A stretch of DNA of 64,000 bases from positions 128,001 through 192,000 of the forward strand of contig MTLP01000042.1 in the NCBI GenBank assembly GCA_002009975.1, written 5' to 3'. Position 1 is the first letter of the stretch. Each line of letters starts with the position of its first letter. This DNA is from Thermococcus sp. JdFR-02. Its GTDB lineage: Archaea > Methanobacteriota_B > Thermococci > Thermococcales > Thermococcaceae. This document shows, piece after piece, positions 15,254-20,880 of the stretch. Made by a program: the position numbers and the translations under genes. The notes below the pieces were generated by a model. It saw only the letters and a list, made by a program, of their open reading frames with translations. It searched no databases and had not been told where the DNA came from.

Positions 15254-16726
15254 TTATTTTGGCTTCATTAGATTATTCCTAAGCAGCATAGCTACACCAT
15301 ATAACAAACCTGAGATGAATAAATTAGCCACAATACCAACTATGAGGGCAAAGATTGCATACCTCAAACTTATAACCCTTATTGTCCAGGCTGCAAAAAT
15401 AAACAATAATACGGGAAGAAAGAGAAGTAGAGGTAAAGCTTTTATCTTATCAAACGTTAGGACAATAAAAAGTACTAACGCCCAACTAAGCATTATTTTC
15501 ATGGAGATGGTTAATGGGTAGCTATCAAAAAACAGGGACAATCCAAAAAACACTGCAAGTGCCGATAAAAGGCTTATGACCAAGTTTTTCTTGTCTATTT
15601 TGTTAAAATTGGATCCTAAAACAACTAATGCAATAATCATGATAATGCCGAATATGCCGTTCTGAGTTACAATACTCCTCCAAAGATCAAGGGGATTAAA
15701 AATGTTGCCATATATTTTAAATGCAAGTAAGATTTTTCTTAAATCGCTTAACTTCTCATCCGATGGGATGTAAACATAACCATCTATCTTCGGAAAGAGG
15801 AACTTTAAAATACCTGCTTCGTTTATTGAAATCTCTGAAAAACCTTTCTCTTTAAAGATTTTTATCGCGGGGTCTCCAAAGAGGACTACTTTGGGGTTCA
15901 CACCGACCTTTTTGAAGTAGGCATTATTTATTTGAACGAGTTTGCCGAGAGAGTAGTTTGAGAGCCAGAGCGTATTCTCCAAATATGAAACTCCTCCTGT
16001 GTCTACGGACGCTATTACTACCAAAGAACCGTTATTGAGCAGATCCAAAACCAATGGTCCCTTAGTCTGCCAAATCATGCCAACACTGCAAGACTCAAAG
16101 ATAAATACTTTTCCTTTTGGATTTCTTATATAATCTTTATTGAAACGCCAAGTGATAAGATTGATCCCATAAGGGCTACCATGCCCAGTTATCCATATCA
16201 GAGAGGTATTCTGAGAATATTTAAGATAGTTTTCATAACTGGCACTATCTCCTTCAAGAAAGTAAGCTTTTCCATTTGTTAGATTTTCGATTTTGATTTT
16301 AGATGGACATGAAGGACAAATGAATAAAGCTCCATATTCTAGCTTTGAGGAAGTTAAACTATTAACCCAATATATAAAGCCGTTTTTGCTTTTAACTGGA
16401 TAAAAACCGATTATTGGATCATAAATGCCATCATTATTAAAGTCAAGATTGTTATAGATAGAATAAACAAAATTGGCGTTAAACTTTGAATAGTTTACAA
16501 TGAATAGAACTTGGTCGTCACTCTTCAAAAATTCTAAGTCAGAAAAATTTGAAATAACCGTGACACCATTATGAAAGTCGGCGATTTTTCGAGCATAAGA
16601 CTCTAAAGAAGACATATTCTGATCTAAAACTACATAATAATCTGCGGACGTCAATTGAGTTGTAAATAAAAACAATATACAAAAAAGGACGAGCGATAAC
16701 AAAAATATCCTTTTACCTACCTTCAT
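15254..16726 (-). CDS. membrane-anchored clan CD (C25 gingipain-like) cysteine peptidase
   Basis: Signal peptide; LIWITGHGS and FIFESCSVG His/Cys dyad motifs; LFGDPA motif; about five C-terminal TMs; GGTGAG RBS before ATG 16726. Confidence 0.75.
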   Translation of the reverse strand: MKVGKRIFLLSLVLFCILFLFTTQLTSADYYVVLDQNMSSLESYARKIADFHNGVTVISNFSDLEFLKSDDQVLFIVNYSKFNANFVYSIYNNLDFNNDGIYDPIIGFYPVKSKNGFIYWVNSLTSSKLEYGALFICPSCPSKIKIENLTNGKAYFLEGDSASYENYLKYSQNTSLIWITGHGSPYGINLITWRFNKDYIRNPKGKVFIFESCSVGMIWQTKGPLVLDLLNNGSLVVIASVDTGGVSYLENTLWLSNYSLGKLVQINNAYFKKVGVNPKVVLFGDPAIKIFKEKGFSEISINEAGILKFLFPKIDGYVYIPSDEKLSDLRKILLAFKIYGNIFNPLDLWRSIVTQNGIFGIIMIIALVVLGSNFNKIDKKNLVISLLSALAVFFGLSLFFDSYPLTISMKIMLSWALVLFIVLTFDKIKALPLLLFLPVLLFIFAAWTIRVISLRYAIFALIVGIVANLFISGLLYGVAMLLRNNLMKPK

Positions 16727-16870
16727 TCTTCTCACCTTTTTGTTTGGTTTGTCTTTTGTAAGCATAATAAAGCTCTAAAAGTTTGTCGATATTGTATTTA
16801 AAAGATGGACACTGAGGGTATCCTTGTTTCATTGCAAGCAATGGACAGCTTCCCATACAAATCTGCAGGA

Positions 16871-17776
16871 TTAATAACTCTTTGTTGTTTCAATGAATAT
16901 TTTTTCTATCGGGGCTTCTTTTGTTTTTACTTCGTAGATATTAATCTCCTGAGTAAGGAGTATTTTCATTATTGCTGGGATCTCATCATTATAATTAGAA
17001 ACTCTAACAGTGACACCAGTGCTCTCCAAATTAACTGAATAACCAAACTTCTCTAGGAGTTCCTTTGCCTGTTGCTTTTTATCAACTTTAAGCACTACAT
17101 CAATGTTTCTAATCCTATTAAGTAAATTCTCCAGTCTTTCCTCTAAAACTAACCTTCCCTCTTTCATTATTCCCACCCTGCATTTCACTCCCTCAAAGTT
17201 TTGGAGCTCGCTTAGGATATGGGTTGAGAATAAAATTATCTTCCCTTCTTTCAACATTTCAAAAATTTTGTCTCTTAAGCTTAAAACTGTGGGAATGTCT
17301 AGATTGCTGAAGGGCTCGTCTAAAACCAAAATATCTGGATCGTGAAGTAATGCTCTCGCCAAAGCGAGTCTCTTTCTAAGTCCCCTGCTTAGATGTCCAG
17401 CTTTTACATTTCTGTATTTTTTAAGTCCAAATTCTTTTAGAAGTTCATTGATCCTTTCCTCTTTAACATCATAGATTTTGGCAAAGAAGAGTAGGTTTTT
17501 ATAAACACTCAAATCTGGATAAACTCTTTCCCCTTCAGGTAAATATCCAATCTTTCTCTTAGCCTTTTCAGGTTCTACCCAAAGATCAATTCCATCAACT
17601 ACTACTCTACCTTTAGAAGGGGGTAAAATGCCGGTGATTACTCTAAACGTTGTAGTTTTACCCGCACCATTGGCTCCCAATAACACATAAATTTCCTTTT
17701 TTATTGCGATAAAGCTCAGATCTTTTACCACATCACCATTACCGTAACCTGTACTAATATTGTCAACCTCAAGCAT
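16871..17776 (-). CDS. ABC exporter ATP-binding subunit
   Basis: GANGAGKT, LSRGL, LVLDEPF, STH. Confidence 0.95.
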   Translation of the reverse strand: MLEVDNISTGYGNGDVVKDLSFIAIKKEIYVLLGANGAGKTTTFRVITGILPPSKGRVVVDGIDLWVEPEKAKRKIGYLPEGERVYPDLSVYKNLLFFAKIYDVKEERINELLKEFGLKKYRNVKAGHLSRGLRKRLALARALLHDPDILVLDEPFSNLDIPTVLSLRDKIFEMLKEGKIILFSTHILSELQNFEGVKCRVGIMKEGRLVLEERLENLLNRIRNIDVVLKVDKKQQAKELLEKFGYSVNLESTGVTVRVSNYNDEIPAIMKILLTQEINIYEVKTKEAPIEKIFIETTKSY

Positions 17777-17786
17777 GAGCATCACC

Positions 17787-18593
17787 TTAATTAGCTATGA
17801 AAGCAAGACGATTGATGAATCTTCTTGATAATAATGCCAGAATAAGAGATATCACAAATCCAGTGCTTCCCAAAAGTTGAACAATTGTGAAGAATTGCTG
17901 AGGAGGAACTTTCATTGCCAATACAAATAACAAAAAGGGTATCAGGCCTACAAATCCTCCAAATTTCATTTGATTGATACTCCTCGCTTTCATACTTATA
18001 AACAATCCAAAAGGCAAAGCAAATAAAAGCATTGAAATTGGTAGAATGATGGACAAGAATATGTACCCTATAGTGGGTGTCCATAGTTTTCCGAGAGATG
18101 TTACAAATATGTACTGGATAGCTCCAAGATTAACTAATATAGCCGAAAATGTCGTAATTAAACCAGCAATAATGCTGGCGATCATTTTGCCCAAAACAAT
18201 ATCGCTTTCCTCTACAGGTGTTGCGAATAAAACCTCCATTGTCTTGTTTATTTTCTCAAAAGCAAAGGATGTTAGTATAATATTGTATGTAGTAAAAAAC
18301 GCAAAAACCTGTATCACCATTGGAATTTGAACTATCATTGTTGCAATAGTTATTGCAGTATCACCAAGAGTATTTAATGATCTCCTCGATATTCCAAAAA
18401 GGCGGGGGTTTGAAAGTATCTGGTTATATGCTAATGCTCGTGATTGTGGGGTTATATATTGGGAATTTGTCAGGATAAGAAATACTAGAACGGAGATTAA
18501 TGAAATTACTGGAAACACGAGTGAATAGAAGGTGTCCTTATTTCCAAGATAGTTCCAGAACTCTTTCTCAAGTATAACTTTAACTTTGGACAT
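17787..18593 (-). CDS. ABC-2 type exporter permease
   Basis: FAFEKINKTMEVLFATPV...GK motif; six TMs. Confidence 0.88.
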   Translation of the reverse strand: MSKVKVILEKEFWNYLGNKDTFYSLVFPVISLISVLVFLILTNSQYITPQSRALAYNQILSNPRLFGISRRSLNTLGDTAITIATMIVQIPMVIQVFAFFTTYNIILTSFAFEKINKTMEVLFATPVEESDIVLGKMIASIIAGLITTFSAILVNLGAIQYIFVTSLGKLWTPTIGYIFLSIILPISMLLFALPFGLFISMKARSINQMKFGGFVGLIPFLLFVLAMKVPPQQFFTIVQLLGSTGFVISLILALLSRRFINRLAFIAN

Positions 18594-19065
18594 GGCTTCT
18601 TTCCCCAAGCTTTTTTATTATCTTGTCTACTCCATCAACGGCTATTACGAATTTTTTCCCATTTTCAGTTTCGATAAATATGCCCTTATTCATGACACAG
18701 TACGCTAAAACTTTCTCTCTCCTTACTGTAGTAAATGTGCCGATCTTAACATTGTTTGTATCAATGCCAATACCATAAGTTCTACCGATTAGAAACGAAT
18801 GTACATCAATAGGCTCTATCTTTGCTATTTTAAATCGCTTCTTTCCCGATAATGTCTTTAGTATAATCATGCTGTCTTCGATATAAATATCAATAGGGAG
18901 GGTTATTACTGCCCACATTGCCCAGAACACTACAAACAGAGACAATACAAATGCAGGAACAAAATAATATGGAACTCCTGATGTAAACACGGATGCCATT
19001 ACAAATATGAAAAAGGCTATAGATCCTGACGCTATCATTATCATAATCCTGATTACCTTTTTCAT
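18580..19065 (-). CDS. two-TM protein with PH-like C-terminal domain (possible immunity protein)
   Basis: Two TMs then beta-rich domain with GRTYGIG..IGTF..IFIETENGKKFVI, resembling bacterial PH (bPH) membrane proteins. Confidence 0.55.
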   Translation of the reverse strand: MKKVIRIMIMIASGSIAFFIFVMASVFTSGVPYYFVPAFVLSLFVVFWAMWAVITLPIDIYIEDSMIILKTLSGKKRFKIAKIEPIDVHSFLIGRTYGIGIDTNNVKIGTFTTVRREKVLAYCVMNKGIFIETENGKKFVIAVDGVDKIIKKLGERSHVQS

Positions 19066-19466
19066 AGTGCATCACTGCAAATTTTTTCTATAATGTCCAC
19101 TATAGATATTCTTTTATTATATTTTTCCAGATAAATAAATCCATTTACGAAAAGCCAAGTTAAAGCAAAAAGTACATCCTGGTTCAATTGTTTTTCGGTG
19201 ACCTCAGGATATTTCTCTCTAAGAGAATTTAGGATAGATTTAAAATTAGTTCCTGACTTATCGGAAGTCATTAAATATATCTGGGCCAGTGTAGGGTTCA
19301 TAACACATATCTTCCCAGTTATTGGATTGAATGTAATAATTTTGCCATCTTTCTCCTGTCTCCACTTTATTGAATTGTTCATAAATACCCTAGAGTTCAT
19401 TATGTCTCTTTTGATATCATCAAGTAGTGGTGGGTTCTTAACTTTGTTATTCTTTATCTTGTTCAT
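19062..19466 (-). CDS. stand-alone PqqD-family RiPP recognition element (RRE)
   Basis: WRQEKDGKIITFNPITGKICVMNPTLAQIY...LREKY....LNQDVLFALTWLFVNGFI fits the three-strand/three-helix PqqD pattern. Confidence 0.88.
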   Translation of the reverse strand: MNKIKNNKVKNPPLLDDIKRDIMNSRVFMNNSIKWRQEKDGKIITFNPITGKICVMNPTLAQIYLMTSDKSGTNFKSILNSLREKYPEVTEKQLNQDVLFALTWLFVNGFIYLEKYNKRISIVDIIEKICSDAL

Positions 19467-20617
19467 GTTAGCTCCCTCCTAATTTCTCGGGAAAGTTTAA
19501 ATTGTGCATCTTTCGGCAATTTTTTCAAATTGATATATTCGCCACACTCCTTTCGTGTGAGTAAAAGTTTATTTAATTTCAGGAAATCTTTCTCTGTTTT
19601 TATATATGTAGAAAGTGCTAATAGAACTAGATTATCTCTCCAAATATTTTGTAACTCGGGCCATAAATTGTTTATACCTTCCTCAATATGTCCATATGCT
19701 AAATTTAAATACGGAGTTGGCAAAATATATCCCTCTGCACTGATCGTCAGTACTACAGAATTTAAATATGGCCCTATAACTATGTGCTCTGTGGGATCCC
19801 CAAAAGTTATTTTCAATGGATAATGTCCTGAATTCTCATTGATCCAAGTTATTAATTTTGAGTATTGTTCTTCTGTAGGTATGAGATTTAGATGTCTTTC
19901 ACTTTCTGGGACAAAGTACATAGATCTAACCTCAAATACTCCAAGATCCAATGCTAGTTCAACTGTATTAGGGAAATCGTGAATATTCAAACTGGTTGCG
20001 CAAAATGCTACAGCCGTGTTTATGTTATAGTCAACTAAATTTTTTATTGCATTAACAGCTTTATTAAATGTTCCTTTACCTCTCAACAGATCCATAATTT
20101 CAGATTTTGATCCATCTAACGAAATCTGTACGCTACCGATATTTAATTCAGACAACTTAGAGGCAAATTTATCTGTAATTAGTGTTCCATTACTCACAAA
20201 ATTCACTCCAATGCCTTTTGAATTTGCATATTCTATAATCTCAAAGAAATCTCTATGCAATGTTGGCTCTCCTCCGCAGAGGCATATACCTAAAACCTCT
20301 AACTCTGAGAGTTCGTCTATTATCTTGAACACATTATCTTTACAAAGGCTTGGAGCTACGGTTCTTTGGGGAGCAGCTAGATAACAATATGGGCATTTGA
20401 GATTACATCGGTAGGTAATGTCAATTGCAGCAAATATTGGCCCTTTGATATTATCTATCCAAGACTTCAACTTTTTGCGAGTTTCGATATATTTTATCCA
20501 TGCCTCAAGAAATCCTGGGATCTGTCCCACCCTAATGGGTTTTCCTCTATTTGGAAGAATGACCTCTAAGAGCTCATTAGTCGCATTGTGTAGCTCTTCT
20601 AAAAAAGAAATGTGCAT
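19463..20617 (-). CDS. radical SAM peptide maturase lacking SPASM/twitch cysteines (candidate epimerase)
   Basis: CNLKCPYC, GGEPTL, SNGTL, VQISLDG; C-terminal LTISAEGYILPTPY has T where PC is expected. Confidence 0.9.
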   Translation of the reverse strand: MHISFLEELHNATNELLEVILPNRGKPIRVGQIPGFLEAWIKYIETRKKLKSWIDNIKGPIFAAIDITYRCNLKCPYCYLAAPQRTVAPSLCKDNVFKIIDELSELEVLGICLCGGEPTLHRDFFEIIEYANSKGIGVNFVSNGTLITDKFASKLSELNIGSVQISLDGSKSEIMDLLRGKGTFNKAVNAIKNLVDYNINTAVAFCATSLNIHDFPNTVELALDLGVFEVRSMYFVPESERHLNLIPTEEQYSKLITWINENSGHYPLKITFGDPTEHIVIGPYLNSVVLTISAEGYILPTPYLNLAYGHIEEGINNLWPELQNIWRDNLVLLALSTYIKTEKDFLKLNKLLLTRKECGEYINLKKLPKDAQFKLSREIRRELT

Positions 20618-20880
20618 TAAGAGGCACCTCCGATATTTTTAAACTTACGTATGTCGTAGGAGTCAAAGATCTCTTTAACTGTTGGTATTGCTACAGTAGC
20701 TATAACTAAGACCCAAGCTGCTGCTGCCCAAACAACCGCAGCATAAGCATAGCCGACTAAGTTCAGAATGGCAGCGTGGTTAACTGCTGCTGCATTATTA
20801 ACAGCCACTACATTATTAGTGCTTATAGTAATGTCTGCGGGAGTGCCAACATCACCACCAACAGGGGGCACGTAGCTCAT
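20617..20880 (-). CDS. RiPP precursor A2, 87 aa, Ala/Val/Asn-rich with Nx5N ladder
   Basis: GGAGGTGA RBS; leader YVPPVGGDVG; N22/N28/N34/N40; TAATG overlap with rSAM gene. Confidence 0.85.
   Translation of the reverse strand: MSYVPPVGGDVGTPADITISTNNVVAVNNAAAVNHAAILNLVGYAYAAVVWAAAAWVLVIATVAIPTVKEIFDSYDIRKFKNIGGAS

Follow-up and report, generated by a model that had tools for sequence, protein, structure and literature searches.

In the 64,000-nucleotide window analysed here (Thermococcus sp. JdFR-02, contig MTLP01000042.1, positions 128,001 to 192,000), the minus-strand open reading frame at 20617-20880 encodes, by direct translation, an 87-aa peptide referred to here as A2. On balance, A2 is probably one of two co-transcribed precursors, together with the adjacent peptide A1, of an undescribed archaeal system. 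This system resembles those that produce peptides made on the ribosome and then altered post-translationally (RiPPs) and would depend on a radical S-adenosylmethionine (SAM) enzyme together with a RiPP recognition element (RRE). In addition, comparison among homologues indicates that selection, and not chance, accounts for a ladder of polar residues with a period of about six in the A2 core. Literature searches found no published description of the A1/A2 cluster; a paper on a Thermococcus radical SAM peptide concerns an unrelated Cys-containing, subtilosin-like locus in other Thermococcus species.

An earlier note on this DNA, made from its letters alone, had described in A2 a ladder of Asx (Asp or Asn) residues with an exact period of 6, a stretch of about 50 residues lacking Asp, Glu, Lys and Arg, and a charged 19-aa tail, and all three are borne out by translation. 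The ladder consists of D10, D16, N22, N28, N34 and N40 and is preceded by only 9-21 residues, while the invariant Tyr46 occupies the next in-register position after N40. The stretch without D, E, K or R extends from T21 to V68 (48 residues), and its second half, about Y44-V68, resembles a transmembrane segment; the charged tail that follows comprises K69-S87. Ladders of at least six Asx residues, at any period from 2 to 10, appeared in only 45 of 100000 shuffles of the whole peptide and in 42 of 100000 shuffles of residues 1-45. Similarly, the Fourier power of a D/E/N/Q indicator is maximal at period 6.0, and the observed power was reached by 0/5000 shuffles at period 6 and by 16/5000 at any tested period. 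The gene itself looks real: its start motif is invariant and a Shine-Dalgarno sequence lies upstream. It is also under purifying selection, since among 14 single-base differences across related metagenome contigs, 10 are synonymous, 4 are conservative and none affects a ladder residue. Neither A2 nor A1 matched any Pfam or NCBIfam family, even at E values up to 10.

Nevertheless, a ladder of this kind was chosen post hoc in the course of extensive scanning, the DNA of the first two Asn hexads looks similar by eye, and A2 from the window is exactly one hexad longer than its homologue P0006. Thus, the pattern could be due to chance, or it could be a functionally meaningless by-product of a recent 18-bp tandem duplication. 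The shuffles described above speak against this explanation, as do the failure of Tandem Repeats Finder to detect any DNA tandem repeat in 20500-21100 and the recurrence of a period of about 6, built from different residues, in A2 subfamilies that are only 30-36% identical. On these sequence comparisons, an origin by chance or duplication is already disfavoured, and we regard it as highly improbable.

The expectation that the Nx5N spacing would be conserved in homologues was largely borne out for the spacing but not for the residue. A significant period of about 6 was found in 8/13 tested A2 sequences, whereas Asn identity is not kept, since N, D, E, Q, S or T can occupy a ladder position; the sequences in which the period is lacking are considered below. 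In Pyrococcus furiosus-type A2, which is one hexad shorter than the peptide from the window (as judged against P0006), the ladder runs D10, D16, N22, N28 and N34, the last being S34 in P0007. Thermococcus guaymasensis-type A2 has D10 and D16, followed by N21, N27, N33 and D39. In the short type (53-61 aa) the ladder is acidic and comprises E10, E16, D23, E29, N/E41, D/N/Q47 and D/E53, with a hydrophobic residue at position 35. The best polar period is 6.0 for A2 of the window and for the P. furiosus type (P0006 and P0007), 5.7 for the T. guaymasensis type (P0005) and 6.1-6.2 for the short type (P0008, P0010, P0011 and P0014). The power at period 6 was reached by very few of 5000 shuffles in each case: 0 for the window, 1 for P0006, 11 for P0007, 18 for P0005, 5 for P0008, 2 for P0010, 3 for P0011 and 0 for P0014. 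Furthermore, indels of six residues preserve the register, both between the window and P0006 and in the insertion that distinguishes P0011-13 from P0008/P0010. On these alignments, the conserved trait is thus the periodicity of polar residues and not Asn itself. A 3.6-residue periodicity is significant in no sequence (the lowest counts were 620/3000 shuffles for hydropathy and 264/3000 for side-chain volume). An alternation of hydropathy with period 2 is modest (129/3000 shuffles for the window and 14-46/3000 for the Thermococcus litoralis type) and is not built upon here.

As a separate observation, most short-type peptides (P0008, P0010-P0015) lack Lys, Arg and His and carry several Asp or Glu residues, which makes them hydrophobic and anionic. 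This is unusual, as most bacteriocins are cationic. The exceptions are P0014, with one Lys, and P0015, which ends in His-Gln-Arg, while the A1-like partners of these peptides (L025, L029, L036-L038) have 1-2 Lys.

The status of A2 as a precursor, also proposed in the earlier note, is supported by the overlap of its gene with that of the radical SAM enzyme, by the PqqD-like gene downstream and by a model of RRE binding. The operon, entirely on the minus strand, has the order A1, A2, radical SAM enzyme, PqqD-like protein, 161-aa membrane protein, ABC-2 permease and ABC ATPase. Stop/start overlaps run through all of these genes up to the permease: A1 and A2 overlap by 4 nt, and at the junction of A2 with the radical SAM gene stop and start likewise overlap. 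From this arrangement, the genes from A1 through those for the radical SAM and PqqD-like proteins appear to be translationally coupled. The Shine-Dalgarno sequence of A2, GGAGGTGA (20887-20894), is located 6 nt upstream of the start within the last A1 codons, and that of the radical SAM gene, GGAGGTG (20625-20631), is within the last A2 codons. The codons that bear these sequences encode S-G-G-E-S-A at the end of A1 and I-G-G-A-S at the end of A2. Consequently, the conserved Gly-Gly tails of both peptides may be partly constrained by initiation of the next gene.

The N-termini of the peptides share a short motif that would serve for their recognition. The start M-x-Y-x-P-P-x-G-G is invariant across 15 aligned homologues, in which M1, Y3, P5, P6, G8, G9 and G12 do not vary, and the more general form Y-x-P-P-x-G-[GE]-[DE]-x-[GD] is found near the N-terminus of all A2 and A1 peptides. 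A model of residues 1-45 of A2 (15-row alignment) in complex with the PqqD-like protein (9-row alignment) had an ipSAE of 0.74, against 0.00 for the best of 3 controls; this mark was reached by 58/80 solved complexes and by 2/110 mismatched pairs. In the three runs at least 50% of contacts agree, and the contacts lie between residues 47-63 and 86-104 of the RRE and residues 3-13 of A2. According to the description of CteB (PMC8326336), this is the canonical RRE site for leader binding. The model supports binding of the A2 N-terminal motif by the PqqD-like protein. Taken together, the locus has the features expected in general of an RRE-dependent radical SAM RiPP system, with small precursors co-transcribed with a radical SAM gene and a weakly matching RRE (TIGR04248) and, in the model alone, a leader bound to that RRE.

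The radical SAM enzyme is informative about the chemistry that may be involved. Pfam recognises only the radical SAM core in this 384-aa protein, which has its cluster motif CX3CX2C at C71/C75/C78. Matches in the PDB and NCBIfam likewise cover only the core and include SkfB (6efn, 1e-20) and MftC, ScmE, WgkB and StsB (about 1e-34 to 1e-36), with further matches to AlbA and PqqE, although none of the family scores comes near its cut-off. The best matches are peptide maturases that abstract a C-alpha hydrogen or make crosslinks. Thus, SPASM/twitch maturases (SkfB, AlbA, StsB, MftC, and PqqE with PqqD) are closest to the core of the enzyme and have a PqqD-type RRE in common with it. In contrast to these maturases, which have the cysteines of auxiliary clusters, the enzyme has lost all of them and has instead a Cys-x-Cys just before GGEP. 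Across nine orthologues no cysteine is invariant apart from C71/C75/C78 and C112/C114, the latter pair lying within L-C-L-C-G-G-E-P, with none after position 114; the C-terminal region has 0-2 Cys and is SPASM-like in layout ('EGYILPTPY...AYG') without the SPASM cysteines. A wider comparison of 54 homologues indicates that loss of the SPASM cluster goes together with gain of Cys-x-Cys. The motif precedes GGEP in 32 of them, 30 of which have two or fewer Cys in the C-terminal region, whereas both motif Cys are missing from 16 full-length homologues, of which 15 carry at least 6 Cys there. Members of this Cys-x-Cys-GGEP clade (P0042-P0049, P0051 and P0062) are about 325-411 aa long, have few or no C-terminal Cys and include proteins named from Gemmatimonadota and Lachnospira multipara; seven bacterial relatives in the clade matched no NCBIfam family above its cut-off.

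The substrates also limit the reactions that are conceivable. A2, A1 and all 15 aligned homologues contain no Cys at all, so that formation of a thioether within A2 or A1 is impossible. As summarised in PMC8326336, the Cys that quenches the C-alpha radical belongs to the peptide in sactisynthases and to the enzyme in epimerases, and proteusin epimerases have the radical SAM cluster only, an RRE and one critical Cys. Because the substrates lack Cys and the enzyme lacks an auxiliary cluster, a redox-neutral, Cys-assisted reaction may be inferred. Epimerisation at C-alpha is our leading guess for this reaction, tentative as it is, since the peptides have no Cys and the enzyme has two invariant Cys adjoining the SAM site.

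These observations can be arranged into a provisional scheme. The N-terminal M-x-Y-x-P-P-x-G-G-(D/E)-x-G would act as a short leader that, as modelled, docks onto the stand-alone PqqD-like RRE. The RRE would then hand the Ala/Val/Asn-rich core to an enzyme that seems to descend from the SPASM clade and that, to judge from its sequence, no longer has either auxiliary-cluster site but has acquired an invariant Cys-x-Cys adjacent to the GGEP that binds SAM. This enzyme would carry out the redox-neutral reaction discussed above. From the genetic context, the product would be very hydrophobic and probably membrane-active, and its handling, or resistance to it, would fall to the ABC-2 transporter and to the small membrane protein that is PH-like. 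Finally, the ladder would most likely align one polar stripe in a periodic mature structure that is not an alpha-helix.

The known peptides that most resemble A2 in this regard are the proteusins. As in A2, the cores of polytheonamide B and aeronamide A are rich in Ala, Val, Gly and Asn and are uncharged, with Asn at i and i+6 as in N22/N28/N34/N40 of A2, where D10/D16 extend the register. The Nx5N precedent invoked in the earlier note is correct for aeronamide, in which D-Asn25/31/37/43 are described as sharing one face of a beta-helix model (PMC9060474). The proteusin epimerases PoyD and AerD are described as having one cluster, an RRE and a critical Cys, and the enzyme studied here has one cluster motif, additional invariant Cys and an RRE partner; this comparison is by description only, and the best matches of the enzyme are SPASM-clade maturases. 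There are also clear differences. In proteusins the leader is of the NHLP/Nif11 type, instead of which A2 has a 12-residue N-terminal motif, and the RRE is here a separate protein. Moreover, the Asn N-methyltransferase, B12 radical SAM C-methyltransferase and LanM-like dehydratase of proteusins are absent from the 10 ORFs scanned with Pfam and NCBIfam (15254-23021), which agrees with the original observation that the cluster lacks a nitrile-hydratase-like leader, an Asn N-methyltransferase and a B12 enzyme. Furthermore, A2 carries in addition a segment that resembles a transmembrane span as well as its charged tail, and the system is archaeal. By these features, A2 does not appear to be a proteusin by membership.

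A second useful comparison is with epipeptides (YydF/EpeX, YydG/EpeE). In Bacillus subtilis, the genes yydFGHIJ encode, in order, a small peptide, a radical SAM enzyme, a membrane protein and an ABC transporter, and the logic of the A2 operon is similar. The epipeptide substrate, like A2, has no Cys. By contrast, epipeptides have no periodic ladder. Their epimerase is described as using a Cys as hydrogen-atom donor, a role for which the invariant C112/C114 would be available here, and EpeE as having two [4Fe-4S] clusters, whereas this enzyme has no auxiliary-cluster cysteines (PMC8326336). Judged by the TIGR04078 match that marks epipeptides, and by the precursor Cys and SPASM/twitch Cys that mark sactipeptides and ranthipeptides, the A2 system appears to belong to none of these classes.

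Gramicidin A provides a third point of reference. It is a non-ribosomal bacterial peptide of 15 residues that forms a D/L beta-6.3 helix and has no polar ladder. With about 6.3 residues per turn, such a helix would align residues i and i+6, as in the ladder of A2, and Gly in gramicidin is found at a D-position. In four representative A2 sequences, Gly is mostly at even offsets from the ladder (+2 or -2 in 11/13 cases), but this is weak evidence because the cases are not independent.

A specific form of the epimerisation proposal is that every second residue is epimerised, giving a gramicidin- or polytheonamide-like beta-6.3 helix with a hydrogen-bonded Asx stripe and the activity of an ion channel. 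This would explain why the polar period is 6.0-6.2 in four subfamilies, none of which shows a 3.6 periodicity, and why six-residue indels maintain the register; it also fits the shared helix face of the aeronamide D-Asn residues and the Gly offsets. The resemblance to proteusin epimerases, as these are described (single cluster, invariant non-cluster Cys, Cys-free substrates and RRE), points in the same direction. Nevertheless, this resemblance does not extend to evidence of homology with PoyD/AerD, and the NHLP leader and the N- and C-methyltransferases are missing. The D/E ladder of the short type would be awkward outside a membrane-spanning helix, the T. litoralis type and A1 have the same enzyme and no ladder, and A2 carries its charged tail and, as a separate part, an alpha-helix-like transmembrane segment. 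In addition, fragments of aeronamide that were epimerised and N-methylated are described as unstructured in solution (PMC9060474). An alternating D/L helix is plausible, but we hold it to be rather unlikely. The same applies to its fuller version, in which a two-peptide product of Thermococcales would include A2 as a D/L beta-helix with a single polar stripe, made by a new type of single-cluster radical SAM epimerase in which Cys-x-Cys has replaced the SPASM clusters.

The hexad might instead act as a ruler for the enzyme, with one modified hydrophobic-Asx/Glx site per repeat and a side-chain or backbone chemistry other than alternating epimerisation. An aliphatic residue precedes the ladder position in most hexads (V, V and L in the window; V, V and L in P0006; I, L, M and L in P0005). 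Substrates with repeated motifs, such as the poly-cyclopropylglycine TvgA and PapA with its CX3D repeats, offer analogies, and radical SAM enzymes working on motifs of this repeated kind have been described (PMC9062424, PMC10878394). However, the repeat is missing from T. litoralis-type A2 and from A1 even though the enzyme is kept, the ladder residue is variable, and oxidative crosslinking usually needs the auxiliary clusters that this enzyme lacks, all of which make a ruler quite unlikely. A further alternative is that A2 forms an all-L beta-solenoid, either left-handed with three hexads per turn or resembling the two-layer amyloid of HET-s, in which the corners would be taken by Asx. When compared by eye with the hexapeptide-repeat pattern [LIV]-[GAED]-x-x-[STAV]-x, the hexads agree at positions 1 and 5, and the short type also fits position 2, with V-E and V-D. 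Such a fold would have room for only about two turns and would leave the radical SAM enzyme without a role, and the Pfam Hexapep model (PF00132) matches 0/7 A2-family peptides at E up to 10, although HMMER filters may drop weak matches. We therefore consider it improbable.

As for its distribution, an orthologue of the radical SAM enzyme is present in 10/97 genomes of the Thermococcus/Pyrococcus family. The order A2, radical SAM, PqqD-like, permease and ATPase is kept in five of eight fetched loci (L021, L022, L024, L026 and L027), while in L025 and L029 short-type peptides occupy the A2 position, and synteny is kept across genera. A profile search of 5.8 billion proteins returned 15 family proteins, and one of 1.84 billion representatives returned 8 real clusters; P0072, a 775-aa repeat protein, was a false hit of the profile search. 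All named sources are Thermococcus or Pyrococcus, except for one contig binned as Thermotogota, and the family proteins of P. furiosus, T. litoralis and T. guaymasensis are all annotated as 'hypothetical'. Degenerate DNA pattern scans yielded 4 loci from genome contigs and 6 from metagenome contigs, and L032, L034 and L035 were set aside as chance pattern matches without a family peptide. The genome-contig scan missed four complete genomes (G005, G015, G016 and G068) whose peptides fit the pattern; its recall is thus incomplete, and absence from it is not evidence of absence. The sequences found suggest that the system is confined to Thermococcus/Pyrococcus-type archaea. The contig titled as a Thermotogota metagenome-assembled genome (L029, 4423 bases, GC 45%) has a complete short-type cluster, with A1-like, A2-like, radical SAM, PqqD-like, small membrane, permease and ATPase genes, and represents either a mis-binned Thermococcus-like contig or a transfer.

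Several observations weigh against the view that A2 is a modified precursor with a functional ladder. First, the period is not universal. T. litoralis-type A2 (3/13 tested) has no period 6 (4932, 3740 and 3728 of 5000 shuffles), P0015 (1044/5000) and P0070 (680/5000) have none that is significant, and it is absent from 6/6 A1 controls. The absence of the ladder in the T. litoralis type and in A1 means that the enzyme does not need it. In P0070, acidic pairs are visible by eye at 16/17, 22/23 and 28/29, yet this sequence failed the shuffle test. Second, the PqqD-like and PH-like matches are below curated cut-offs. In the complex, the fold of the partner is uncertain according to the model (pLDDT 48-49), and the score could in part stem from the likeness to RRE-leader complexes already solved, as the binding site is the canonical one. 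Third, the YydG epimerase model TIGR04078 gave 6 weak matches elsewhere in the genome and none at C1:147466-148617, where the enzyme is encoded, and all of the chemistry is deduced, so that any modification, mass shift or D-residue of A2 rests on sequence reasoning. Fourth, the cluster seems to be often decayed or decaying across genomes. Frameshifts interrupt the radical SAM gene in G016 (L026/L002), G068 (L027) and G063 (L028), the ABC ATPase is split in G068, and A2 is frameshifted at a G-run in G065 (L021), although a sequencing error is also possible there. In two complete T. litoralis-type genomes, the reading frames of the cluster are intact.

The structure predicted for A2 also counts here. 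AlphaFold2, from a 15-row alignment, gives a single alpha-helix over residues 15-74 (mean pLDDT 72.6, pTM 0.33; pLDDT 74-87 across residues 21-70). This would suit A1 and A2 if they were ordinary all-L small membrane proteins, as a hairpin or a single span, in which Asn, Asp and Glu drive helix association. The transmembrane-like Y44-V68 and a K/R-rich tail that fits an N-out, C-in topology are consistent with this alternative, as is the ESM Atlas, which gave no feature matches for A2 and structure matches only to generic long helices. Nevertheless, AlphaFold2 cannot model D-residues, and a straight 60-residue helix is, as a model, unrealistic as a membrane fold. Moreover, a period of 6 sets polar residues 240 degrees apart on an alpha-helix and thus gives no polar face, in keeping with the lack of any significant 3.6 periodicity. 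Ordinary membrane proteins would also leave aside the translational coupling to the radical SAM and RRE genes, the modelled binding of the RRE to the shared motif, and the composition of short-type peptides, with five acidic or amide residues in about 30 and zero basic ones. We consider this alternative unlikely and prefer to read A2 as a precursor.

The coordinates of A2, its parts and the surrounding genes are given in Table 1.

Table 1. Features of the A2 locus (positions refer to the window).
Feature	Position	Strand	Basis
A2, precursor-like peptide, 87 aa	20617..20880	-	ORF, homologues, purifying selection
A2 N-terminal motif, shared with A1 (residues 3-13, Y-V-P-P-V-G-G-D-V-G-T), predicted leader for RRE binding	20842..20874	-	alignment, complex model
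A2 period-6 Asx ladder, codons D10 to N40	20761..20853	-	translation, shuffles, Fourier
A2 uncharged stretch, codons T21 to V68	20677..20820	-	sequence; AlphaFold2 helix 15-74
A2 charged tail, codons K69 to S87	20620..20676	-	sequence
A1, second precursor-like peptide, 59 aa, with Y-x-P-P-x-G-[GE]-[DE]-x-G and no ladder	20877..21056	-	sequence; homologues
Radical SAM enzyme, 384 aa	19463..20617	-	Pfam, NCBIfam, orthologue alignment
PqqD-like (RRE) protein, 134 aa	19062..19466	-	TIGR04248 ScmD E 7e-4, below cut-off; conserved in 9 loci
161-aa membrane protein, weak bacterial-PH-like match	18580..19065	-	PF10882 E 0.0087, below cut-off
ABC-2 type permease	17787..18608	-	Pfam; synteny
ABC transporter ATPase, last gene of the operon	16871..17785	-	Pfam, NCBIfam; synteny
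Second ABC ATPase, divergent	21224-22234	+	Pfam, NCBIfam
Second ABC-2 permease, divergent	22209-23021	+	Pfam, NCBIfam
94-aa protein, HTH-like by eye only, divergent	23023-23307	+	sequence

Among the remaining genes of the operon, A1 is 78-79% identical to its counterparts in L022 and L024. The 161-aa membrane protein has homologues in L021 and L026 and a 118-aa analogue at the same position in L029, and it is possible that it is an immunity or accessory protein. A terminator-like hairpin lies past the ABC ATPase (16823-16807) and was the only transcription signal used, as a sigma-70 promoter scan is uninformative for an archaeon and was set aside. The divergent ABC pair and the 94-aa protein (21224..23307) are possibly an associated export or immunity module. 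These three genes adjoin the cluster in L025 (G110), where the transporter genes are 72-84% identical and the 94-aa protein is 41% identical, and were not found beside it in the remaining fetched loci.

Two further neighbours were noted. A 503-aa membrane protein (15254-16765, minus strand) has an N-terminal anchor, several C-terminal transmembrane segments and, by eye, a His-Gly ... Glu-Ser-Cys motif pair that recalls caspase/gingipain-type cysteine peptidases; it matches no Pfam family and has a weak PorU-related NCBIfam match (E 0.033). It was considered as the leader protease of the system and excluded, because tblastn found no match to it in any of 8 related loci. On the same strand, 23326-25174 resembles, by eye only, a metal-handling gene group, with a 466-aa pyridine-nucleotide-disulfide oxidoreductase that ends in Cys-Cys and looks mercuric-reductase-like, an 80-aa Cys-rich, metal-binding-looking protein and a 71-aa heavy-metal-associated-like protein.

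To our knowledge, archaea have yielded few modified ribosomal peptides, and hyperthermophiles none. The system proposed here would be compact, having besides its two peptides only a single enzyme, a single RRE and a single exporter, and its very short recognition motif would be shared by two unrelated cores. It may also be directly testable, as T. litoralis is a named source and two complete genomes of that type carry an intact cluster, provided that the organism can be cultured. The A2 core appears, by comparison, to be under selection for a period of about 6 that has so far been seen in D/L beta-helical channel peptides, and the loss of SPASM cysteines with the gain of Cys-x-Cys points to a distinct and probably redox-neutral mechanism. 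If epimerisation were confirmed, the system would provide a peptide epimerase that is thermostable and a minimal way of making beta-helical peptides; if the reaction were a different one, it would still be a new radical SAM peptide chemistry. Finally, if A2 did form a D/L helix, the system would be a convergent counterpart of the polytheonamides in hyperthermophilic archaea and the founding member of a wider Cys-x-Cys-GGEP radical SAM clade that also has bacterial members.

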